Positions 3,912-64,000 of a stretch of DNA of 64,000 nucleotides are shown in pieces (position 1 is the stretch's first letter; each line of letters opens with the position of its first letter). The notes below the pieces were generated by a model that saw nothing but the letters and a program-made list of their open reading frames with translations, did no database searches and was not told the DNA's origin. Both the position numbers and the translations under genes were made by a program. Source of the DNA: Felis catus (Eukaryota); NCBI RefSeq assembly GCF_018350175.1, contig NC_058368.1, positions 82,152,001-82,216,000 of the forward strand, in the 5' to 3' direction.

Positions 3912-6900
3912 TCACTTCGGAAGCTCAAACGTGTCGCTGGCCCTGATGGTTGTGGGTCTGAAGGACAGATCGAAGGACCTCTGGTCGCTGAAGCTCTGGG
4001 CTCTATACTTTGCGAAGCTTGCCAGCCTTCTGTGGTGCTCATGCTCCACCGCACCTCTCCCTGCCACAGGGGTGTGTGAGGGCCCCTCCTGGGCTGGAGC
4101 ACGGGGAGCGGGCACCACGGAGCCCTGCGCTGGCTTGGGGCCGGAGGGCCACGGCCTTTCTCCCACCCGGTGTGGTGTTCCAGGCCCTCCCTGGCCACCC
4201 CTGGGGCCCGGTCCCTGGGACATCCTGCTTGGATCTGTAGTGGCCACTGCTTCTGAGGAGCTTTTGGGGGGGCCCACCGAGCTGCGGGACACCATCCTGC
4301 CAGCCTGGGCACTGTATCCCAAACGGGGGCTCTCTGCACGCCAAGCCTGCTGCCCCTGCACACGTTCTAGGCCCTTCTTGGGGTGTTGACCAGTCTCCAT
4401 CTTGGTGGCCCCCGTGTCCGGACCACTGCCCACCTGGACCCCCCAGGGCCATTTCTGACCCTCTTCAGCAGCACATGGCCCAGGCTCCTGACCCCGGAGA
4501 GCTACCCCCTTCTCCAGGGGACCACCGAGCCTCATGGGCCCTGCGGCCCTCTCCTCCAGTGCCCCCAGGCCTGCCAGAGGTTGATGTGTGCCCCTGCTGT
4601 CCTCCACTCCCTTTGGGACGCCAGACCTTAGGAGGGATGCAGGCGGCAGGTGCGCCTGGAGGTCTGGGCACTTCGGGGGCACCTGGCCTGCCCGCTGCCC
4701 TTCTGCTGCCGCGGGAGAAGCCTCCACACTGGGAGGCACCTGCTTTTCAGGCAGGATGCACTTGTCTTCCTTGCTCGGTTGGTTCTGGGGAGGCCCCACG
4801 CCAGCACTGCCCTGGGTCGTGGGGTGAGACCAGCCTGGAACTGTGGACAGGTCGCCCTCGCATGGGCTCCCGTGTCTGGCTGTGGCACCTCTGCCCCCTG
4901 CCCCTGTGCTAGCTTCGCTCTCCGCCTCAGCGCGCGTGCACAAGGGGACCCCCGCCTCCGGCAGGGCCGCGGCCCGAGCCTCAGGGGTCCCCCCCAAGCC
5001 TCCACAGGCACCGCTCCCGGTTGCTCCGAGCCCGTGGTGCCTCCAGGACACGACTGGCACGGAACCGAGCGGGTGGCTGGCGGCCGGGGCACGAGCCTCT
5101 GCTGCGGGGCTGCAGTGAGGTGACGGGGGTCGGCCCTCTGCCTCCCGCACAGGCTTCCGCTCTCCAGCCACGACGTTTACCGGGCTCGGGGCGCTACCGG
5201 GCGCTGCCGCGGTGTGACTCTCCGCGGCCCCTGGGACCTCGGTACTCGGTTTGGGGCGTTCACTGAGGGAGGTGGGTCTGTCCCCACCCAGGCCGGTGCT
5301 GGAGCGCCCTGCGGCCCGCAGGCCGGACCGGGCTGAGCCCCTCCGTGGCGGCCCTCCGGGCTCTTGCTCGCGCAGGCCGTTCCCGTGCGCGGAGGCCGCG
5401 CTTTCGGACTTAGTCCCGCCGCGGCAGGGGGCCCAGTGGCCGTCCCCTCCCCACTGATTCTCCGAGGCCGTGGGATGATGCGATGGGGCGTCCTCGCCAC
5501 GGGCGTGCCCGTCACCTGCTGCTGGCGACGGATGCTTCTGACAGGCGGGCTCAGGCGCGTCCTGCCCCGCCGGTCCCTCAGGATGCCGGAGACAGAGCGC
5601 GTTTCGGTCCGCAGCGCTGCGCGTGTTTTCCTTTCCCCGCGTGGGACTTTGCTGCCGACCAGCCGCTGACAGGTCCCGACCCACGCTGGCGGCGCCCATT
5701 TCAGGCGAGACACTCAGGGTTTCCAGGGAGCCCTGCCGTGGCCCCGCCGACCCTTTGCGGCCCGCGCTGGCTGCTCTGGTGGCCTCGCTGCCTACCGGCG
5801 CGGGATAAGGCTCTGGAGCACTTGCAAGCCCACCCCAGCACCCGGCCCCGCCCCCACGCATGCCCCCGCCTACATCCCCGCCCTCGGCCACACGCCCGCT
5901 CCCAACCACGCCCACACGCCCGCCCCCAGCCCCACCCACAGCCCCGCCCACACACCCGCCCCCGGCCTCAACCCCGCCCCTCGCCCCACTCGCGACCCCG
6001 CCCCCAACCCCGCCCACACACCCACCCCCGACCCCAATCCCGCCCCCAGCCCCACTCACGACCGCGCCCACACGCCCGCCCCCAACCACATCCCCTCCCC
6101 TAACCCCACTCACGACCCCGCCCCCAACCCCGCCCACACCTCCGCCCCCGCTCACATGCCCGCCCCCAACCGCGCCCACACTCCCGCCCCCAATCCCGCC
6201 CACGTCCCCAGCCCCACTCACGACCCCGCCCACACCCCCGCCCACATGCCCGCCCCCAACCACGCCCACACTCCCGCCCCCAATCCCGCCCACGTCCCCG
6301 CCCCCAGACCCACTCACGACCCCGCCCCCAACCCCACCCCCAGTCCCTCCCATGCCCATACCCCCTACCCCCCTCCAACCCGCGATCCCGACCCCGCCCA
6401 CACCCCCGCCCTCGCCCACATGCCCGCCCCCAATCCCGCCCACGTCCCCGCCCCCAGACCCACTCACGACCCCGCCCCCAACCCCGCCCCCAGTCCCTCC
6501 CATGCCCATACCCCCTACCCCCCTCCAACCGGCGATCCTGACCCCGCCCATATCCCCGTCCGGGCTCACGCCTCCACCCCAGCCCCCAACTCCGCCCTCG
6601 CCTCCGCCCCCACTCACGCTCCTGCCCCCATTTACTCTCCCATCCCAAGCCTTAGGCCCAACCCCAACCCGGCCCCCAGCCCCGCCCCCGCCCCCACTCA
6701 AGCCCACACCCTCACCTCGGCCCCCGTCCCCGCTCCCTCCGCCGCCCATGCCCCCACCCCCATTCATGCCTCCTCCCCCACCCGCACCCCTGCCCGTACC
6801 CACATCCCCACCGCTCCGAAGACTAGAACCCTTGTCTCCACCACCTGGTGCCTTTGGCAGCGCGGCGGGAGGCGGCATTTCGTGCACGAGCGGCCGCCTG

Positions 6901-8367
6901 ACCGTTATCTGCGGAGGCTCGGCGGCCGGCTGTGCGCGCCGCAGGGCCTGAACCGCGGGCACCGCAAGTGGCGGGACACGTCCCGCTACCTTCTGTTCCG
7001 GGAAAGTCTGCTGCACGGCGAACAGGGGATCTCGCTCCGAGCCTGGGGTCGCTACTTCTGTTTCATCCTCAGAACTGCAAACTGTCAGGGCCACCTCGGG
7101 GGCCACCCCTGCTTGCGCCCTCGGGGGCCCAGGCCACAGGCTCGCCCTGGCTCCCCCCGGCCCCCAGGTGTACTGTGCAGAGTCCCCTGCGGGGGGGTCC
7201 CCCATCCTGTCCTCTCTTGCTGCCCCAGCATGCCAAGGGCTGGCTGGTTTGAGTGGGGCCACCCTGGGCTCACAGCCAGGAAGGGCCTCACCCCTGTGGG
7301 AGGCAGAAGCGGGGTCTGGTTTGGAAACAGGCTTGGGCCCCATACCCAGGAACCCGGCTTCCAGACTGTCCCCAGGAGCCGTGGCACTGGGTGCTGGGGG
7401 CTGTTCGGGGTGCCCACCAGGCTGCCCCCATCCCACTGTTTTATTCTCCCTGGATGCCGCGTCCCCTGCGCTGGACACGTGCCCCCGGTCGGAGTGGCCG
7501 ATTTTGGCGCAGTGGGACAGCCAGCTCCTGGGGCTGCAGACGACCGTGGCAATGTTGAAGGCCAGCACGGGCTCAGCGGTGCAGGCCAGGAAGCGGGCTA
7601 GTGGCGTCCGGATGCAGGTGCTGGCCATGGTGGCTGTGCAGAGCACACGGGCCTCTGGTCGGTGCGTCTTCCTCCTGCGCAGGCCCTTCTTCCTCCCCTC
7701 CGTGCGGAGCGGCAGCACGCTGGCCTCGGAGCAGAGACAGCCGCTTTGCTCAAACTTCGCCCGCAGCCTGGACAGGACAGAGCCCCTCTTGCTGGCCGGC
7801 TTTGGCAGGGGCCCTCTGGCAGCTTCCGGCTTCTCACACACGTTTTTCTCCTCTGCCGCCAAGAATATCTTCAGAATGTTCTTCACGGTGCCCTTTCCCC
7901 CGGTGGGGAGGCCACGCCGGGACTTCTCGTTGCACAGCGGCTCCCCATCCTGCGCCGTGCGGCCGGTTCCCTCCCGGGCCTTGTCCAGAAGTTTGTTGAT
8001 GGTGGCGGTGACCAAGATCCTGCTGGGGCCCTGCTTGTCCTTGAAGATCAGCCTCCCCACCTCCCGGGTCTTCTTGAGGCGGGGCTCTCGGCCAGTGCCC
8101 ATGAACTTGGCCTGCAGCAACTGAAAGCATGTGGGCCGCCGGTGGGCATCCTGAGTATCCTGAGCGCGGCTGACCCTGCTCTCCCTGCGCTCTGACCCCC
8201 GGGTAGGAGGAGGCCCTGGGGGCCTGTCCTGGAGGTCAGTGATGTAGAGCAGCAGACTGCTGAGGATGGCACGGGCTGCAGGGTCACACGTCACACTGCT
8301 GACCTTCTTTCTCAGGGCTTGGGCATCAATGGGCTTCTTACCACCACAAATCTTGCCTCGCTTGGAG
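3912..8367 (-). CDS. ADPRHL1: ADPRHL1 large alternative terminal exon 8 (4456 nt coding, mostly low-complexity)
   Basis: 1460-aa ORF extends without a stop to a tttttcctacag| acceptor at 8367; phase matches the GAGAA|GTAAAG donor at the end of exon 7. Confidence 0.85.
5840..6810. repeat. C-rich (plus) / G-rich (coding strand) degenerate tandem repeat within exon 8, encoding a Gly/Val-rich tract
   Basis: Recurrent ccgccccca units and a 150-nt near-perfect duplication (cccccagacc at 6301 and 6451). Confidence 0.9.
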
Positions 8368-11300
8368 CTGTAGGAAAAAAGAAATCAATTGTCATAGATT
8401 TTAATCATCGTTTTTCCCACGGTGACTCCATCGAACATTTCAAATACCCCAAGAAGTCCAGGAGGAAGGACAGACAGAGGAGACTAGGAGACATGAGGGA
8501 TGCCCATTGCCTCTCGGGCCAGTGTCCCCTGCCCACTCCTAACCCACTATCCCATCAAAGGCTTTGGGACGCTGGTGTTAAATAGCTCTGTGGCAGCACT
8601 TTGGAAAACTAATGTGCATGTGCAAAGTATTTGAGTTTTTTAAAAATGAAGCATAGAGAATTTATATTTTCTGTGGGGTTCTTGCATATCTAACTTTAAT
8701 TATGGGGAATGAAACTAACACCACTGGTATATCCGACTCCCTCCCAGTGCTGAGTCCCTGAGAGCAATCTGGAAGACTGCAGGCCCCAGGCGGGATGAGG
8801 GTCCCCTGGAGCCAGAGGAAGTGGTCTTTGCTGCAGAGTGGGAGGTAGGCTGGGGCGCCCGCTGAGGCCTGCATTCCTGAGCCCCCAGAGAAACCTTGAG
8901 GCTGAGGGCCCTGAGCCCCTGTCCCTTGCAGCCCTGTCCCCAGGAGATGCTTCTCAGCACCTCGGCCACAGTCCCCACACCTCAACCTAGCCACTGACAA
9001 GTCTGGGGTGTCTGGTCCTCGATGGGGCTTCTCTCTCCTGAGCAGCCTGGCACTGGAGGTCCCCCCCCACCCCCAGCCCCGTGGGCACAGCCATTCCAAC
9101 CTCTCCAAGTGGCTCCTCTGTGAAGACACACCCAGAATACAGCCCAGCCATTCCCAGGAGCCCACAAGGATGCAGAGCAGGGACCATGACACACTGCTGT
9201 TTATGACACCAAAGACTCAGAAACGTTCTAAGCATGCACCCCCCGGGCTGCCCAAATTCGGGCATGGCCCTGTGCAGCGAGAGCTCCGCCCACACAGGGC
9301 GGTGCTCACTGAGTGGCTAGAAACGCGGCTGCAGAGCTGTGTGTGGACTTGGGCCCAACCATGTTGTCCGACTGAAACTGGATGGGAAGGTAACATACAA
9401 AGACTTTTCTTTTCAGCCTTTATGTATTTCCCAGAAAGGAGCGCTCTGAAGGCAGAGGCCACACGCACACGTGCTTGTAAACAGCGGTCAGGAGCCTGGT
9501 GAGCCTGTGTGCTGGGGTCGCGGGCGGTCCATCAGGTGGCAGCCTGACCCCAGGCCGCGCTTGGGGCGCCGGTGCCTGGCAGCGGGTCCTCTCCAGGAAC
9601 AAAACCTCGGGCACCTGCCCCCGCAGGCTCCCCAAACCCCTAGGTCACCTGGCTGCAGTCAGTTGGTGCCGAGTGGCCACTTTGCTGTTGTGGGACGCCA
9701 GAGGACTCGTGAGAGCAGAGTCCGGCAGCTCCACCGCCGTGTCTGACTCCGGTGGCTGCCAGGGGCCTGGGAACCTGCCTCTCCGGCTGCCGCTGGCCCA
9801 GGCCTCCCCTTGCCAACGCCTGAGACAGTGGGGGCTCCTTCCTAGACTCAGACAGCTGTGGGCTTGGACAGCTGCCCTGGTGAGCCAGGCTCCTGAAACA
9901 AAACTGAAACCCGAACCCAGGCCCAGGCCAGAGGCCAGCCGGCTGGCCACAGGGGACAGGTGCTCAAAGCACCAGGGGAAGCCAGGCTGCGGCTGCGCGG
10001 GTCCGGCGGCAGGAGCGAGGGGCTCTGGGGCATACTGGGAGCTGCGACCCCCAAGAAGGCGGTGCCCTCTCCACGGGTGGGGCACCCAGGACACCCACAC
10101 CCCGGACCCCAGGATTAGGGGCCGCAGAACAGCAGGCCGACTCCAGTGTTGCTGGGGCGGCGTTTGGCCCCTCCTGTTCCCTCGGAGAAGGCCGGCAGTC
10201 TCCAGCCGCGTGTGCCAGGACCCAGCCGTGGCTTGCCCCACCGCCCGGGGGCCCCTCTCCCTCTACCCTCTGCAAGGTCACCAGACACCTCGCTTTACCT
10301 GTGGAGGTAGGTTGTCAGAGGCCAGCTTGGGGCTTGGTGGTCCAGGCTTCCTCCAGAGCCCGCGAGCCTCCTCTCCCCGCCTTGCCAAGGCAGTCCCCCG
10401 AGTCCCAGACCCGCCAGGCCGCTCTGATCCACGCCGTGGGCATTGCAGCCTGGCGGGTAGCTCGGTTGGCGGCACCTTTTAGTTTGGCAGAGGCGCACCG
10501 ACCTCGGGCGGCCCTGGGTCTCTTCACGGCCGATCAGCCTGAAGCCCCAGCCACTGTCCCCGCCACTGCCCCGGCTTAGCTCGCTCTGCCTGGTTCTCGC
10601 TGCCGCCCTGCAGGTACCCATGCGGAGGACGCTCGGGGGGCCCCACAGTGCAGGGGCCTCAGGGTCCGGCCAACACTGGATCTCCCGGGCACGTGACACA
10701 GGGCTGACACCCCTCCCCACACACACAGCCCACGGCCATCCACCCCCATGTTCCTCTGCGCCGCCAGCACACTGCGTGCGTGGATCTTGCGTCGGCATTG
10801 TGGGGACTCGGCTGTTTCCAGAATGGGGGGCAGGCAGGGACGGGCTCCTGCTGCGGGCGAGGTGTGGCCCTGCCTCTGCACCCACATCTGGTGCCGTCCA
10901 CGCTTGTGCCCCTCCTTCAGGGACCCTGTCCACCCTCTGAGGACACGGGGAGCCCGGCCCCACCGGAGCCCGCTCCGCACTCCCAGCAGGACCCCAGGCC
11001 GAGCGACCCCGGCCTGTCCACGCGGTGCCCAGTGAGCGTCTGCGAAGGGTCCACGTCTGGCTCCGAGCCCGACGCCGGCAGGGCCTCGGTCAGTGCTGAA
11101 GAACTCCATGCTGTGGCCAAGACACCGCCTGTCACTGTCACCGTACGCTTCCATCAGTGGACCTTGAGTGGCCCCTCAGGGAACAGTGGCCTCCGCAGTG
11201 CCTGCCACCCGCACCCCATGCAGGGGCCTCTGGGCCCAGGAGGGGCCTGGTGGGGGTGTGGAGATGAGGCCCTTCTGGCTGTGCCAGCCACCCCCTGCTT

Positions 11301-27786: not shown

Positions 27787-29566
<1,780 letters not shown>

Positions 29567-30259
29567 TGGCTCCTAGACCAGTGCAGCGTGCATACAATTC
29601 ACTCTAGATTTTATTCAGAAGTCAGACATTAATTAGAGTTGGTGTATGTGCCTCATACTCTGGTTGCACAGGACAATCTAGAAAAACCCACAACCCTCAT
29701 TCCCTGCTAAAGGTTCTGTCCATGTGACGACAAGCTGGCCTGAAATCTGCCTGGTCCTCGGGCTGCTGGAGACCCACGCCTCCACGCGGCTGAACCCCTC
29801 CCATTTCCACCCCCTCTCTCGCTCCTGGAAACCCCTTGCGCTGCCCCACCAGGCACTGACTAGTCCAAACCAGACTGTGTGTGACAGCGTTTGGGGACAA
29901 GCATGTCTCAAGCCCCTTGAGGATCACAGGCATGGAGGGCAGAGGAGCTGACGCACTGGCCACCTGCAGTCTGGGGTGTCGCCCCCCGATACCGTCAGGC
30001 TCTTATCTGAAACGGTGGGTTTTACAGGGAAGGCTCCTGGGGTTAGGTTACGCAACTTGCCCAAGGCCGGAGATGGTAAACAGAGTCCGATGGCAGGCCT
30101 GAGCATTTCTATCATTAAAGTAATGCACAGCAAGAGCTAGAGGACACCTAACTCCAAATTTGGGGTCCAATCTGCCTCGTTCCATCAGAGAGCAGGGCTG
30201 GTGGCGACAGGGTCACTGTGCCAGGCCAGCTGGGCAGATACTGGGCGTTTCCAGTGTGC

Positions 30260-33978: not shown

Positions 33979-35050
<1,072 letters not shown>

Positions 35051-38043: not shown

Positions 38044-38123
38044 CTAGAAAGGGCGGCGCTTACCGCCCGTCACAACTGGCCGTGCATATTCTACAAAATC
38101 ATCTATCAGAACAGGCCACGCTC
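38044..38123 (-). CDS. DCUN1D2: DCUN1D2 exon 7 ([26 protein letters not shown])
   Basis: cctgtag| acceptor, TAG at 38044-38046; DCN1 AWPxLIDDF motif present. Confidence 0.97.
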
Positions 38124-39238: not shown

Positions 39239-39335
39239 CTTCTTCGTCATAGTTAGACATATCATCTGCAATCATATTTCCAAAATCTAGCAGAAGGTTC
39301 CAAGTGTCCCTTGGGATTGATCTTTTGTGATGTTC
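39239..39335 (-). CDS. DCUN1D2: DCUN1D2 exon 6 (97 nt; [32 protein letters not shown])
   Basis: attag| acceptor, AAG|GTACG donor. Confidence 0.97.
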
Positions 39336-40902: not shown

Positions 40903-40985
40903 CAATAAAAAGCTGTTCCAAAGATCTAAAAATTTAAACCTTCCAGATAACACTAAATTCCAGTATGCAACAGCCATTTCTAAAT
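40903..40985 (-). CDS. DCUN1D2: DCUN1D2 exon 5 (83 nt; [28 protein letters not shown])
   Basis: tttgccag| acceptor, TTG|GTAAG donor. Confidence 0.97.
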
Positions 40986-47135: not shown

Positions 47136-48789
47136 GAGGTGAAAGCATTTGTGCAAAAACAGAACTGAATATTTTAGAGTTTGCAAATTGTGATAGATTT
47201 TGCTCACACAGCAAAATCTTGTTCATACAGTATGAAACAAGAATATTGAGACTGAACGACACAAACTTCACGATGTGGGTCCACTGGGGAGCTCCTGGGC
47301 CCAGGGCCCATGTGAAGGTGGGTCCCAAGTGTCCTGAGAGCATGCAGGTCACAGAACAGGGCAGGGCAGAGGCAAGCACGGCAACCAGAAGGGGACAGTG
47401 GAGCCAAGACGGACTTGACCCTTCGAGGCTTGTCCGACCTTCACCACTCGGGTCCCTGGGAGTGATCTCCACCCATGTCAGGCAGCCCGCCAGGATGTGT
47501 GAACGCAGGGCACAGGAGAGGAGGGGCCCTAAACCTGCCATCGTGGCCTGTCCGCACACCTCTGACATGCACTCCATCCCTCAGCCTGTTTCCCTGTTTA
47601 CAAAACGTGGGCAAGACCACGCGTGGGCAGATGAAAGCACCTGTCTGCCACACGACAGGTGCTTAATAAATGCTAGTTTCCACCTTTCTTTCTGGTCATG
47701 AGATAAAACGTAAGAGCAGCCGCCTACGGCAGAAGCCACACTGGGTGAGGAGGCCGGGCTTGCACCTAGATGTCTGGATAGGGGGCAATGGGGGAGCAGG
47801 GGGAGGCACTGGCGTGTCCATGACCAGCTGTCCCAGCACCACACTCTACCCCTCACCGGTCAGCAATGCTGTAAGCACTCTGATTTTCCCAGGAACAAAA
47901 CACCACGAGCGCAGCTCTCCACTCTGCACCAACATGACCAGAATCACCCTAAATTCTAATGCAGCCAGGGTCCCACTGCCAGTATCTCAATCTCACCTCC
48001 TGGCACCCCTGTGGGGACACCCGGGAAGCTTGTCTCCAGGAGAGGCAGCACCCGGCTGGCAATCACAGCCTGATGTGCTCAAAATGCCCCCAACGCCCAG
48101 GGAGGTTCAGGCGGTAGTGGAGGCCACCCGGCTCCTCCTTCCCTCAGTCGGTTGACCAAGCACGGGCTGGTCCCTTCAAGGGGGTGAGGACAGACACAAC
48201 CCAGCAGGCCTGGCGTCCACTCACTCTTCCACTGCCCACGCTCCACTGTCCCTAACCAGCTCCTGCTTAGGCGGCAGGATCCCTCACCAATGGCAGGCCA
48301 TCTTTCTTCCCATGGCCCCGGCTCTCCGACACACGACAAGGTGGGGACCGTGCAAAGCCTCCACTGCCAGAGGTGGCTCGCTGCTGCCCCTTTACCCAGG
48401 GACAGGCCTGTCTGCTCACCCATTTCCTGGAACAGGAGAAAATACATCCTTAATTTTCCTGGTGGCTCTCCCACTGCCACCTTCCCAAAGTTTTGGCAGA
48501 ACTGTTCAAGTGAGCTCCTGAACGGGGCTCACACAGAGGCCCTTTCTCAGCTCCCAGGGTGGCAGGAGCATGATCCTCGAGGTGGCACACAGGGTGAGAA
48601 AGCCGTTCACAAGGCCAACTAGCCTGGAGACAGAGGGAATCTGATGAGAGACTCATCACAGTGCAAGGTACCAAGAGTAAAAGTGAACAACCACAGCACT
48701 GGAGAAAAACAAGTAAAAAGAAGAAAACCATCTCTGCCATGGGAACAAGCATAGTGCTTATGAAAGATGGCCCCCACCCCCTGCTCTGA

Positions 48790-49352
48790 GATAGGAGGGC
48801 CCAGTCCCTGACACCCCCCCATGGGAGAACTCAGCCCCTGTACCCCCCTCCCATGGGAGGGGCCCAGCCCCTGCACCCCCCATGGGAGAGCCCAGCCCCC
48901 GCAACCCCCTCTTCCAGGACAGAAAGGCCCAGCCCCCGCACCTCCCCTCCATGGGAGAGCCCAGCCCCCGCACCCCCCCTCCCACCTCCTCTGGGACAAG
49001 AGGGCCCAGCCCCAGACACCCTCCATGGTAGAGCCCAGCCCCCACACACCCCCCCATGGGAAGGCCCAGCCCCTGACACCCCCTATGGGAGAGCCGGGTC
49101 CCTGCACCTCCCCCCACCATGGGAGAGCCCAGCCCCTGCACCCTCCCCTCCTCTGGGACAGGAGGGCCCAGCCCCTGACACCCCCTATGGGAGAGCCCAG
49201 TCCCTGCACCTCTCCCCACCATGGGAGAGACCAGCCCCCACACACCCCTTTTCTGGGTCAGGAGGGCCCAGCCCCCACCCGCCCCCACCCCCACCCCCTG
49301 CCATGGGAGAGCCCAGCCCCTGAACCATCCCACCCGCGATGGGAGAGTCCAG
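48790..49352. repeat. Minisatellite, about 30-bp unit (catgggagagcccagcccctgcaccccc-like)
   Basis: Visible tandem units in DCUN1D2 intron 4. Confidence 0.9.
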
Positions 49353-50274: not shown

Positions 50275-50405
50275 CTAAGCCCTTCTGCCCGGGGTTCTTA
50301 GCAAAGGTGAAGGTAAACTGATAAAAATCCTTAAACTTCGCCGTGTCCTTCAGTTCCTGCTCCAGCCTCGGCAGAAGGGCCCTCAGCTTCTCCGTGCTGT
50401 CACAC
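50275..50405 (-). CDS. DCUN1D2: DCUN1D2 exon 4 (131 nt; [20 protein letters not shown]...AKNPGQKGL)
   Basis: ggcag| acceptor, TAG|GTGAG donor, in frame. Confidence 0.97.
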
Positions 50406-57838: not shown

Positions 57839-58007
57839 CCGAGCTCTGTCATGCCATCTACAAATTCCTTTTTGGTAAATTCACATTGCGTCGCTGCCCT
57901 GAATTTCCACGCAATGACCAAAACGCTGACGCTGGCAGGATCCAGGCTTAAGTCATCACAAAACTGTTGAATCCCGTCAATTCCAATTTTATTTTCATCT
58001 TGTGGGT
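57839..58007 (-). CDS. DCUN1D2: DCUN1D2 exon 3 (169 nt; [20 protein letters not shown]...GMTELG)
   Basis: tgtag| acceptor, GG|GTAAGT donor, DCN1 PONY domain sequence. Confidence 0.97.
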
Positions 58008-59240: not shown

Positions 59241-61222
59241 AAATTTTTTTTAAATATTACATATTTTTATCTCAATCCTGCCAAAGCAATAGAGAAACTC
59301 TTGTTTTTTTTAAGGTGATTTTGTTTGCTATAATTTTAATGCTACTATACAGTATTTAGTTTTCAAAATCGTTTAGTTCATGCATCCACATTTAACAGCT
59401 TAGAAATTCAGGCTTCCCTCTGTCCCTATTTCTGGTTTAGAAATGAAATTAAGGAACTTAGCATTTCTTCATCAGGAAATCTAATAAAATCTACTAGAAA
59501 AATCTCAGTAAGACCTCACCAAACCAGGTCTAGTAATTTCCAACAAAGTGCGTGTATACTAAGATGCCATCACAACGTGTGTGTTAATTCTGTTGGTTTA
59601 GGAGGCACAACTAGAAAATTTGTAGCCTCTTTGCTCCAATGAAGATTAAGCATGATAAAATTCTTCCATGACACAAAATCCAACTTTGGTCACTTCAGTA
59701 CTATATACTATATTTTCATAGACATCTTGTTATTGAAACGAAATGAAAATTTGAAAAAAAGAAAAGAAAACAAGTACATAAAATAAAACGAATGCCGTAA
59801 TCAAACAAGCGGAGGCCCAGGCTTCCTCCCGGGCTTGCTCTCCCATATTAATGAGGGAGCAGCTGTCCCGAGGGCTCCTGGTTCTCACCCCCCTCCTGTC
59901 AACGCTCCCAGTGCTATACAGATCCCCAGGGTGAGAGCACAGTGGGCCTGCACTGCCCTCACCTACAGGAACACTGACTATTTTAAAGTCACTCTGCAAG
60001 GACTCACTCATATGTATACATTAGTCCTAACAAGGTTGTGTCTGTCAGGGCCTTGGAACAGCACGTCTCTGCAGAGCCCACAGGGATCCCACAACGTGTC
60101 TACTTGAAAGGCCCAGAACTGCACGAGTAAAGGACGTGAGGGTTAGGTCTCCACTACAGAACGACCCTCACAGGGAGGAACTCTCTCACAGGTGGCTGGA
60201 CATGTCTGAACACCTCCAGCCACCTGCACGGTGTGTGACCTCCGAGACAGGCCCCATGACAACCTCAGCCAGAGTAACTTGGAGCGCATTACAGCTTATT
60301 CAAAATGATGACTTTTCACTTTCAAAACCACTGTTTGTTTTCCAAATACAAACCTGGTTTTTCTACTACAGAGTATGTTTCTGTGCCATGATTAAAAAAA
60401 AAATGCAGTTTTAAATCTGTTTTCAGATCTAAATAGATTAAAATACACATACAGTATTTTCAAAAGTGAAACATGAAAATAATACGTCAACAAGAATTTA
60501 AAGCCAAGCGAGTTATTCTGTTTAGGTTAATACTTGGTTAAATGAGTGTTTTGTGGTTTTTTTTTTTTTTTTTTTTTTTTTAGGTTTTGGAAATACAAGA
60601 TTAGCCTTAGAAACTGCTAGAAAGGAAAAGTAAGTCAACTCTTGACTAGTGGCTGCCTCTGTGATGACAGCACATACCTGACACCCGATATGAAATCTGA
60701 AAGGCTGCTGAAATCTGAGCCGTCTGGATGTGTACAGACCTGTCACCAGACTTGGGCAGCGTGACCGAATCCACACAGGGAGAGTGCCGCTCTAAGCACT
60801 GGTGTTCCTAACAAACCACCATCCCCAACCTGTAACACAAAAGTCTCTTCACCAGGAGTGGCCCCTGAAGCCGCCCCAACGGCCAGGTGGCTCCAGGACC
60901 ACCGCACAGCCACGCTGTGCGAGCACAAGAGGACGTGTACCCACAGATCCGACTTTCTTCTAGGAGCTGGTCCTGTTCTTCAATAGCCCTCTCGCCACCA
61001 GGGTGCCAGCTTACCCGGCAGCGCTGGGGGGAAACCGGGGTCACAGCCCGGCCCGCCACCCCCCACCCCGGCCCGGGTCAGCTACCGGGTGAGGTTCCCC
61101 GGAAGCGCAGGGGCCTCTGCGGCTCAGCATCAGCAGCTCAGGAGGCAGAAGGGTCCCGGGCGCCCCAGAGACAGAGGCGGGCTGCCCGCGGCCGCTCTTA
61201 CCTCTATGCTTGTCGCTCTTAC

Positions 61223-61277
61223 CTCTGTACCTGTCGTACAGCTGCTCCAGCCTCCTCCTGTCCACTGTGCTTCTCAT
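61223..61277 (-). CDS. DCUN1D2: DCUN1D2 exon 2, intact 3' part (MRSTVDRRRLEQLYDRYR)
   Basis: Resembles the DCNL2 segment before the PONY domain (human MRNAVDKKKLERLYGRYK, recalled); GAG|GTAAG donor in phase with exon 3. Confidence 0.85.
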
Positions 61278-61434
61278 GGGGCCCGCGGCAGGAGCGACGG
61301 CGCGCGGGGAGTCGGCGTGGTCACCTCTGGCGTCTACCTGGCCCGTGCTCCGCAGCACATGGCACCACTCCGGCCAGCCTGACAAAATGCCACAGGCTCA
61401 GGACCTTGTCCCTCGGAGACGGCTTACGTGTACG
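61278..61434 (-). pseudogene. DCUN1D2: Degenerate 5' part of DCUN1D2 exon 2 (UBA-like domain remnant)
   Basis: RTRKPSPRDKV and QAGRSGAMCC resemble DCNL2 HKLKSSQKDKV and QAGERTAIYC but lie in different frames; all three frames contain a stop. Confidence 0.7.
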
Positions 61435-63074
61435 CTCTGGGACGTGAGAGCACGAGGAAGGCCAGGCGGCTGGGACGCGGCTCCGCTTCAGTTTCCCACC
61501 GCCACTGCCGGTATTTGCACTGGACCTCGTGCTTCCTCGCTGGCTCCCCTTCTTCGCGGGGCCCCGGGCCACAGCATCACATGGCTCCGTAGTCAGGAAG
61601 ACCGCCCCGTCCTCTGAAAACCGGGATGACGGCATCTATCTGGTGATAAACATGCCAACGACTGTGAGAATCAAGCTTTTACACAAAATACGCTGTAATC
61701 TCTAACCACTTCAATTTGCATAAAACCCTTTATTCCCTGTCCCCTTTCCCCACCCCCCTCACCCCCAACCCCACCCCCCAGTCTCAGGAAAATCCCTCTT
61801 TTACACACTGTAGCTCTCTGATGCAGTGAGGCTGGGTGTCTGACCCCAGGCATGACCACATCACCACGGCCTATGGCGGGGGAGGGGGGTGGTTCTCTTT
61901 AGTCCCAGTTAAGTTCAGGATCTAATGAGGGCTGTACAGTTTGGAAACATCATTTAGATTTTTCCCAGTTTAAAATCAGCAGAGTCACACTGATGAAAAC
62001 ATATACAGGTAACTAAGAATAGTGTTAAGCATAACTTACTAAAGTTCCAAAAGCAGCCACAAAAAGCCCGTTATGACTAAATGAATCACAAACAGATCTG
62101 TGTACCTGAGCCAGAAATTAAAAATGGGAACACAGTGCAGAGGCTGGGGCAGGCAGAAAATAGCAAACCAGCCAGTAACCACGCTATATATAGTATGTAA
62201 GGAAACAAAATAGCATTCTAGCGCTTCCAGGCAGGGGTCGGCTAAATTTCTACTTATCTAAGGTAACCTGATGAAGAGGGCACCAGAAATGAAAGTGAAT
62301 CACCACCTTCAGTGAATCACCACTTTCTGTAAATCAACACAGACTCTACAATCTACTGGATGCTAATGCTTTACACAAATGCTTTACAAAATAACAGAAG
62401 GGGAAGTTTCACGTAAAAGGAGGGATTCTTGATCTTGTGCTAAAAAGGATGAGACAGTTTATAAAAACACACAGAATAAGTTCTACCTTCCGGAAACCTG
62501 TAGTGGAATACAACATGGAGCCAGGGAAACTGAGGAGGAAAAAAGGAGAGTCAGGGATGAGATTCAGACATGCGCACCAGACACAAGAGCTGGAAGCGGG
62601 CTGAAATTCGGTTCAGCCTCCCGGCCGCCAAACCACAAAAGAAAACAGGATTAGTTAGGAAATCTGTTTTCGTAAGATTTAAAAACCTACCAGTGGCCCA
62701 GCAGTGGCCTGGCTCCTCCTGGCACGGAACCGCGAAAGAGCAGCCTCTGTGCGGCTCACAAAAGGGTAACTGCAGCGTGTGTCCTCTGTCCCAGACCGAC
62801 TCCTCCCCCCAACGCCAAGGGTAAACAGCAGCACGGTGGCCAGAGCTGCTTAGCTTCCTCCGGCCTCCCTCACAGCGTGCTGAAGCCAAAACAGCAGAGC
62901 GCAGTTCAGCAGAATGACGGCTCCAACACATGGCTCTCCAGGTACAGTCTGGACACCCCAGGCTCCCGAGACTGCACAAGGGTTCCACCAAGGACAAAAC
63001 TACCTTCGCAACAACCCCAAGTCATTATCTGCTTCTCTCACTCTCACTGGGGTGAAGCAGAGGCCACATGACTT

Positions 63075-63157
63075 GCTGATGTGGGGTTCAAACTCATGAA
63101 CCATCATGACCTGGGCCAAAGTCGGACGCTCAACCGACTGAACCACCCAGGCACCCC
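63075..63157 (-). mobile_element. Partial Can-SINE
   Basis: catgacctgggccaaagtcggacgctcaaccgactgaaccacccaggcacccc. Confidence 0.75.
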
Positions 63158-64000
63158 AATTTTTTAAAGCGCATAGGGGACTAGAACTAATTAAGTCTGA
63201 GAACTGCTGATCTAGTGTAACATGGGGCACTGGCCTTTTGGCTACTTAGAACAATGACTGTTGATGATTTGGGGTCTTGGGTCCCTTCTGGAATCTGGTG
63301 AAAATCACAGATCGTCTCTCCAGTAAAGCATGTGGTTTTGCATAAAATTTTGGGGTTTTCACACATCATTGGAGCCCATTAGTTCCTCAGAGGGTAAGGG
63401 AAGGTGAAACTCAGGTTACAAGGCCCAGGGAGCTACATCAGGGGTCACTGGTCTCTGTTGCAGCTACTCAGCTCTACAGTGTGGATGATGGACATGCTCT
63501 GCACCAATAAAACTTTACTGACACACAGGCAATGTGCCTGTGGGCTGTGGCTTCCAGTCCCAATCTAGATTCTAGGGGAATATACAGAATGTATACCCTG
63601 TATGCTATTTCCTGAAATTGAGCCACTTAAAAAACTAGACAAAGAGCCTGGGGTTATATCTTCTGGTTAAGATAAAATTTAGCTAAATTAGGGCAGCCCC
63701 CATATGCTTTGACAGTGAGCTGACAAAAGGTAAAACATCTTTTTTGAAGGTGATGGGCTCCCCAGGGGAGGGTGGACAAAGCCAAGGGTTCCCTCAGAAA
63801 CTAAACTGGAGACAGATGTCTGTCCCCCACCTGGCGCATCACTAGAAATGCTCGTGACATCTGTATCATGTAAATCGCCACCAGTGCAACATTTTAAAAT
63901 TGTCATGGTTGTAAAATAAAATAAAATAACATACAACGAACTCTGACCATGCTACGACAGGGATGAACCTCGGAAACATCACACCAAGTAAAATAAGTCA

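Follow-up and report, generated by a model that had tools for sequence, protein, structure and literature searches.

Does the cat gene DCUN1D2 still encode an N-terminal UBA domain, and if that domain has gone, how and when was it lost and what does the gene make now? These questions are raised by the window (the whole stretch of 64,000 nucleotides of Felis catus DNA analysed here), for which a preliminary description had proposed that the UBA-coding part decayed within exon 2. The UBA of DCN proteins is conserved from yeast to humans and is not needed for neddylation; its role has been called undetermined, and knockdown of DCNL2 left cullin neddylation unchanged in cultured cells (PMC4886823). 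Later work links it to coupled monoubiquitylation and CRL remodelling (PMC6393609), such that the domain is dispensable for neddylation in vitro and needed for ubiquitin binding and for ARIH1/ARIH2-coupled monoubiquitylation (PMC6393609, PMC4886823). Additionally, DCUN1D2 was able to substitute for DCUN1D1 in mouse testis lysate (PMC6336273), and PMC10721184 deals with mouse exon 6 skipping.

DCUN1D2 lies on the minus strand of the window in six coding segments, all of whose borders read AG/GT. Spliced translation from the ATG at 61277 joins 55 + 169 + 131 + 83 + 97 + 80 = 615 nt into 204 aa with one terminal stop, bearing out the sum and the intact PONY domain given in the preliminary description. 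The coding part of exon 2 (61223..61277, 55 nt) runs from this ATG, the equivalent of Met56 and in weak Kozak context, to the GT donor, and is followed by the PONY exons 3 (57839..58007, 169 nt, supported by translation and an RNA joint), 4 (50275..50405, 131 nt, with a loose end of exons 3-4 in sequencing run X4), 5 (40903..40985, 83 nt) and 6 (39239..39335, 97 nt), the last two placed by translation, and by the coding part of exon 7 (38044..38123, 80 nt up to the TAG). All three residues of the DAD patch for cullin binding (D211, A235 and D241 in the numbering of PMC6393609) are present, Asp211 in exon 6, Ala235 and Asp241 in exon 7.

The identity of the gene is supported from several sides. 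Its ORF agrees with the cat RefSeq protein XP_044912113.1 (isoform X2) in 178/178 residues, with the tiger in 177/180, and with both the striped hyena and panda DCNL2 in 194/204, and the cat, tiger, hyena and meerkat RefSeq models have in common a start Met that corresponds to the ATG at 61277. The Cullin_binding domain (PF03556) is recognised at 97 bits in P0206, which equals the window ORF over 178 aa, and at 129 bits in the full-length hyena protein (204 aa). Among solved structures the best match is 4GAO, a crystallised human DCNL2 PONY construct whose first residue lies six past the cat Met; it scores 369 bits and the best DCNL1 chain 354, which places the cat protein nearer DCNL2 than DCNL1. 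Furthermore, the exon 2 donor and the relic of its acceptor align with an intact fish locus (L001), and exons 3-5 match that locus by blastn. The gene of the window is thus an orthologue of DCUN1D2 by descent. Its PONY domain is identical to that of macaque at 176/186 positions, and the 10/186 differences compare with 8/186 in bat, 11/180 in pangolin and 14/184 in horse.

Upstream of the start ATG the picture is one of decay. Frameshift-aware alignment and an RNA contig delimit, at 61278..61434 of the minus strand, the relic of codons 2-55 of the ancestral exon 2, which once coded for the UBA and is now a transcribed leader. Aligned with residues 2-55 of pangolin, the relic attains 39, where shuffled sequences average -30 (sd 10, maximum 4) and 0/200 come up to its score, and across five references (pangolin, horse, bat, pig and human DCNL1) and three penalties both the set of lesions and the start of the relic exon at 61434 stay the same. 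The first lesion, seen in protein and DNA alignments and likely common to Carnivora, is a 1-nt frameshift in codons 13-15 (61395..61401), placed at 61401 by four references and at 61395 by pig. A TAG stop occupies the conserved UBA Trp35 (61334..61336), placed identically with all five references and three penalties; this Trp-to-stop change is found in the cat only. Between 61279 and 61309 lie a lost codon near 61309, in the Phe44/45 region, and a second 1-nt frameshift near 61282; the DNA alignment with L001 has a gap at the first frameshift too and agrees that 5 nt are lost overall (relic acceptor and donor enclose 212 nt in the cat, and exon 2 of L001 measures 217 nt) but sets the later gaps elsewhere, so the positions of these two lesions are approximate. 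By frame reading, a TGA at 61398..61400, which lies 41 codons ahead of the start ATG, closes the main frame.

The three frames read as the preliminary description had reported: the frame RTRKPSPRDKV runs from 61434 to a TGA at 61323, the frame QAGRSGAMCC ends at the TAG at 61336, and the third frame is stopped at 61400 upstream of the ATG. Pfam finds no UBA in any of the three leader frames, and of the ubiquitin-binding residues F15, M16, F44 and F45 (PMC6393609) the relic has, out of frame, Pro, Val, a lost codon and Pro. Cat DCNL2 accordingly lies outside the UBA-PONY class, that is, proteins with UBA_4 in frame with PONY, and loss by decay inside exon 2, through frameshifts, a lost codon and a stop, is the reading that these results support.

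Could these lesions be errors of assembly, or could an intact UBA exon beyond position 64000 supply the N-terminus? Of 26 words sampled from 61200-61480, a share of 0.96-1.00 is present in every one of the 20 indexed runs that contain this stretch, which come from 13 studies. Reads were placed on the window for four of the 24 listed runs (X1, X4, X21 and X24), among which X1 leaves exon 2 uncovered and X21 covers very little of it. The library type of X4 is not on record, but its joints are exact GT-AG ones; it yields an unbroken contig over 61223-61639 at depth 1686, with 0 other letters and 0 gaps, where most intron pieces reach about 5-11. The joint from exon 2 to exon 3 (61223 to 58007) is present at depth 2070 in X4, in 5 reads with 4 starts in X24 and in 1 read in X21. 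The decayed frame is likewise joined to exon 3 in P0002, a felid-like record, and P0122 (6 contigs) equals the frame of the window. Twenty runs from 13 studies together with an exact spliced contig mean that the lesions are not an assembly error, an explanation already largely refuted by the raw-read check that the preliminary description had called for. What might still speak for an N-terminus supplied from elsewhere is that, by rough arithmetic, about 17% of the depth of exon 3 in X4 is left unexplained once the exon 2-3 junction, with about 83%, is allowed for. Against it, a tblastn search of the 64-kb window with five intact UBA segments returned the relic and noise (best E 0.14), hence no second copy there, and 0/34 of the carnivoran entries listed have a UBA. 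Given that share of the junction and these UBA-free entries, an intact exon beyond 64000 is unlikely, and artefact and relocation taken together are extremely improbable.

Two minor features of the exon 2 donor region may be recorded here. X4 also has a minor GT-AG joint from 60678 to 58007; its depth of 47 is some 2% of that of the main joint, and it likely marks a longer form of exon 2, which would meet a stop. A 21-nt tandem duplication (61193-61236) spans the donor and places another donor-like sequence 21 nt inside the intron; this sequence was not seen in use among the joints listed for X4, X24 and X21.

The decayed stretch is thus transcribed and spliced to exon 3, and the feliform models start at the Met of 61277, so the 5' part of exon 2 has become leader, as had been proposed. 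Where this exon begins had been foreseen less exactly: the AGs named at 61435-61438 do mark the relic acceptor, but the acceptor in use in run X4 is a CAG ending at 61640, about 205 nt upstream, so that exon 2 starts at 61639 in that one run and the former intron 61435..61639 now lies inside the exon. Among the joints listed for X4, one with GT-AG ends leads from 62691 to 61639 (depth 547, about 1/3 of exon depth) and defines an upstream untranslated exon (62691..62718), whose donor at 62691 is observed and whose length of 28 nt is estimated from depth arithmetic and a polypyrimidine-AG at 62718. A G now precedes the ancestral AG, and a CAG competes with it from two bases upstream; the shift of acceptor may be due to this. 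Among the joints listed, where SINE reads take up many places, no exon feeding the other two thirds of the transcripts at 61639 appears, nor any acceptor in X24. In X24, where read numbers are low, depth falls from 8.8 over 61287-61497 to 1.8 over 61498-61708, which may reflect another acceptor or 5' fall-off. Whichever acceptor is chosen among those seen or considered, the UBA is not restored, since the breaks sit inside the exon. X4 contains in addition a weaker contig, 62691-63131 (depth 39); this segment is transcribed, reaches a short piece of a SINE (about 63076-63166) and may be an alternative first exon.

Ahead of the main ATG the leader contains four others, whose predicted uORFs span 61321..61635 and all terminate before 61277: uORF 1 (ATG 61635, 104 codons, stop ending at 61321), uORF 2 (ATG 61582, a start-stop), uORF 3 (ATG 61577, 29 codons in the main frame, stop ending at 61488) and uORF 4 (ATG 61360, 8 codons, stop ending at 61334). 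The main ATG, with C at -3 and A at +4, stands in a weak context. This spontaneously gives rise to the thought that such a leader silences the PONY ORF and that the mRNA gives little protein, a thought to which the DCNL2 knockdown without neddylation change in cultured cells (PMC4886823) would lend itself as well. We consider it very unlikely: the PONY domain is unbroken over six exons, its DAD patch is kept, its rate of evolution does not exceed that of species whose UBA is intact, and the spliced mRNA is abundant in X4. The integrity of PONY across 20 carnivoran species argues for continued selection on the protein. On these grounds the 204-aa protein is likely made from the ATG at 61277, and cat ribosomes would reach it by leaky scanning or by reinitiation past the four upstream ATGs; with these to pass, its output would probably be modest.

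How far does the loss reach beyond the cat? Among the 34 carnivoran entries listed, which are named entries from 20 species with isoforms of one species not independent, none has UBA helix 1 or an intact core; 32 include exon 2, and 12 start at the Met56-equivalent. Outside the order, the core is kept in 30/30 pangolin, horse and bat entries and in 9/9 suid entries listed. Pfam UBA_4 is matched at 40-42 bits in full-length models of pangolin, horse and bat and at 31.6 in pig, and finds no match in the bears, panda, sea lion, seals, walrus, canids, otters and feliforms tested. At residues 16-55, bears, pinnipeds and canids differ from macaque in 18-26 of 40 positions, bat, horse and pangolin in 5-8 and pig in 12, whereas PONY differs in 8-15 of about 185 positions across the same caniform and outgroup species and pig. 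Divergence of residues 16-55 without that of PONY means that the N-terminal part was released from constraint while PONY was retained. The loss proposed for the lineage of the cat is therefore real but wider than had been thought, being seen across Carnivora and possibly again in ruminants.

Two candidate signs of loss were rejected in this comparison. A start at Met16 is insufficient by itself, for horse, bat, rabbit and pangolin, all intact, have models with this start that still score 27-31 bits for UBA_4; and pig, with a full-length model at 31.6 bits, is not a case of UBA loss.

The age of the loss has to be read from proteins, since the single match of a metagenome scan for mammalian exon 2 DNA was the intact outgroup locus L001 of a fish, and no carnivoran or ruminant exon 2 DNA came to light; a 50% representative search likewise added nothing from carnivorans or ruminants for the part ahead of the start Met. 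In the walrus, model P0136 includes residues that precede Gln14, and these fit the contiguous cat DNA, which is the -1 frame (P 0.001-0.002 for three lengths). They fit the fish DNA in its -1 frame as well (P 0.002-0.019) and do not fit the ancestral frame, while the controls pangolin, horse, pig and bat fit the unshifted frame. In the caniform ORF P0234 the exon begins in the ancestral frame and, after an equal codon count, shows four shifted residues identical to those of the cat. Over 17 aa its distance to the shifted register of the cat is 12 against a null of 26.8 (0/30000), and it agrees with the cat in the two residues that are the first in the exon to be changed. Because walrus and P0234 are both in the shifted register of the cat, the first frameshift is likely older than the cat-dog split; these two peptides, one from a gene model and one from an ORF, point to its likely occurrence in the carnivoran ancestor. 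As a separate observation, four N-terminal residues of P0234 match the former intron of the cat at 61465-61454, just upstream of the relic acceptor; with P 0.10, not significant alone, they give a hint that the upstream shift of acceptor may be common to cat and caniforms.

Alternatively, the UBA might have been relaxed early and broken separately in feliforms and in caniform families, bears and sea lions making a 244-aa protein with a degenerate N-terminus. The bear, panda, sea lion and grey seal models have indeed an open frame from Met16, the upstream peptide of the dog model gives no clear fit to a single shift (P 0.16-0.22 against cat DNA), and the Trp-to-stop change is confined to the cat. 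Such parallel decay is nonetheless unlikely in view of the register and the changed residues common to walrus or P0234 and the cat, and Met16-start models are just the remnant expected of a frameshift at codon 13.

In ruminants, a UBA is present in 0/13 entries listed for cattle, yak, buffalo, deer and reindeer (protein entries such as P0052, P0101, P0109, P0111, P0216, P0231 and P0232), 9 of which start at the Met56-equivalent; UBA_4 had no match in four ruminant entries in one Pfam test and in two in another. With pangolin, horse, bat and pig intact, this absence would amount to a second loss, and an independent one is possible, as judged from protein models, in which a missing domain can be an annotation gap. 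A bolder proposal, which we put forward tentatively and hold to be somewhat doubtful, is that the UBA was shed twice in Laurasiatheria, by a frameshift shared from the stem of Carnivora and again in ruminants, with restart at the same internal Met and selection on PONY; the outcome would be that, of two co-E3s bearing a UBA, one became a feedback-free form that escapes Ariadne-coupled monoubiquitylation, its dose in the cat set by the exonised intron and the four uORFs.

Taken together, we regard it as quite probable that in the cat the UBA part of DCUN1D2 is broken and transcribed as leader beside an intact PONY, that the gene likely makes a 204-aa co-E3 predicted not to bind ubiquitin, and that this state arose by a stem-carnivoran frameshift followed by drift. 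The most likely cause is relaxed selection under redundancy with the paralogue DCNL1, whose UBA is kept (as seen in human DCNL1 only) and would have permitted the decay in DCNL2. Presumably a 1-nt deletion near codon 13 severed the exon 1 ATG from the frame in the carnivoran ancestor; translation would then have moved to internal Mets, to Met16 in bears and some pinnipeds and to Met56 in feliforms, otters and elephant seals, and the sequence so released would have drifted, most severely in feliforms.

What such a protein might do can be gauged from its relatives. Compared with its orthologue, vertebrate DCNL2 (DCUN1D2, SCCRO2; 259 aa, UBA_4 plus Cullin_binding), the cat version is alike in PONY and DAD patch and differs in having no UBA in any frame, a start at the Met56-equivalent and an exon 2 extended upstream with uORFs. 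The nearest functional parallel is the engineered DCNL1(PONY), residues 59-259, whose boundaries are nearly those of the cat protein and which keeps co-E3 activity in vitro and loses ubiquitin binding and monoubiquitylation (PMC6393609), with the difference that it is an overexpressed laboratory truncation of the paralogue, and the cat form a natural fixed DCNL2 allele. By analogy, the cat protein would still promote cullin neddylation, which DCN-type co-E3 ligases stimulate with acetylated UBE2M/UBE2F, and would escape ARIH1/ARIH2-coupled monoubiquitylation, a working but unregulated co-E3. Natural mammalian PONY proteins without UBA are known as well in DCNL3, DCNL4 and DCNL5 (PMC4886823); their N-termini carry membrane or nuclear targeting signals, whereas the cat protein has almost no N-terminal extension.

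One may go further and suppose that the loss was adaptive, freeing DCNL2 from ubiquitin feedback for a distinct role on unneddylated, CAND1-bound cullins, with the new leader setting the dose. In cells DCNL1(PONY) does differ, with more CAND1 and less CSN bound, modest effects and a dominant-negative character (PMC6393609), and the loss may have occurred twice, if the ruminant models are right. We nevertheless find an adaptive origin quite unlikely, for the erosion is graded (mild in pig, severe in cat), the pattern that relaxed selection produces, and the cell results come from overexpressed DCNL1.

The short protein itself is already predicted by RefSeq in feliforms, otters, elephant seals and ruminants; the models of cat (XP_044912113.1), tiger (XP_042836553.1), striped hyena (XP_039077554.1, 204 aa) and meerkat (XP_029792270.1) share their start Met and have no UBA, but they are automatic predictions in which the loss, the lesions, their age and the structure of the leader are unstated. 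Literature searches, which left subscription journals mostly outside, found no published statement of UBA loss in DCUN1D2, although comparative-genomics tables could list the gene; an order-wide UBA loss in a well-known family is thus real and apparently unreported. That a redundant paralogue loses a domain and its translation restarts at an internal Met is, as a general process, ordinary. The interest lies rather in a whole mammalian order, and perhaps a second group, with a UBA-less DCNL2, where feedback is dispensable and PONY is not. Pig, bear, dog and cat offer natural alleles at several stages of decay, suited to direct tests of the role of the UBA, and the dog and cat proteins are unlike the human one, which matters for neddylation or DCN1/2 inhibitor studies in these animals.

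Some observations concern the rest of the window. A neighbouring gene on the minus strand, which we take to resemble ADPRHL1, has a 1490-codon open stretch at 3915-8384 with a long Gly-rich tandem repeat, and further exons near 34209-34557 and 27787-28188. Finally, 27937-29603 and 48453-49320 are long tracts that resemble tandem repeats, in which GC skew is strong and CpG low.
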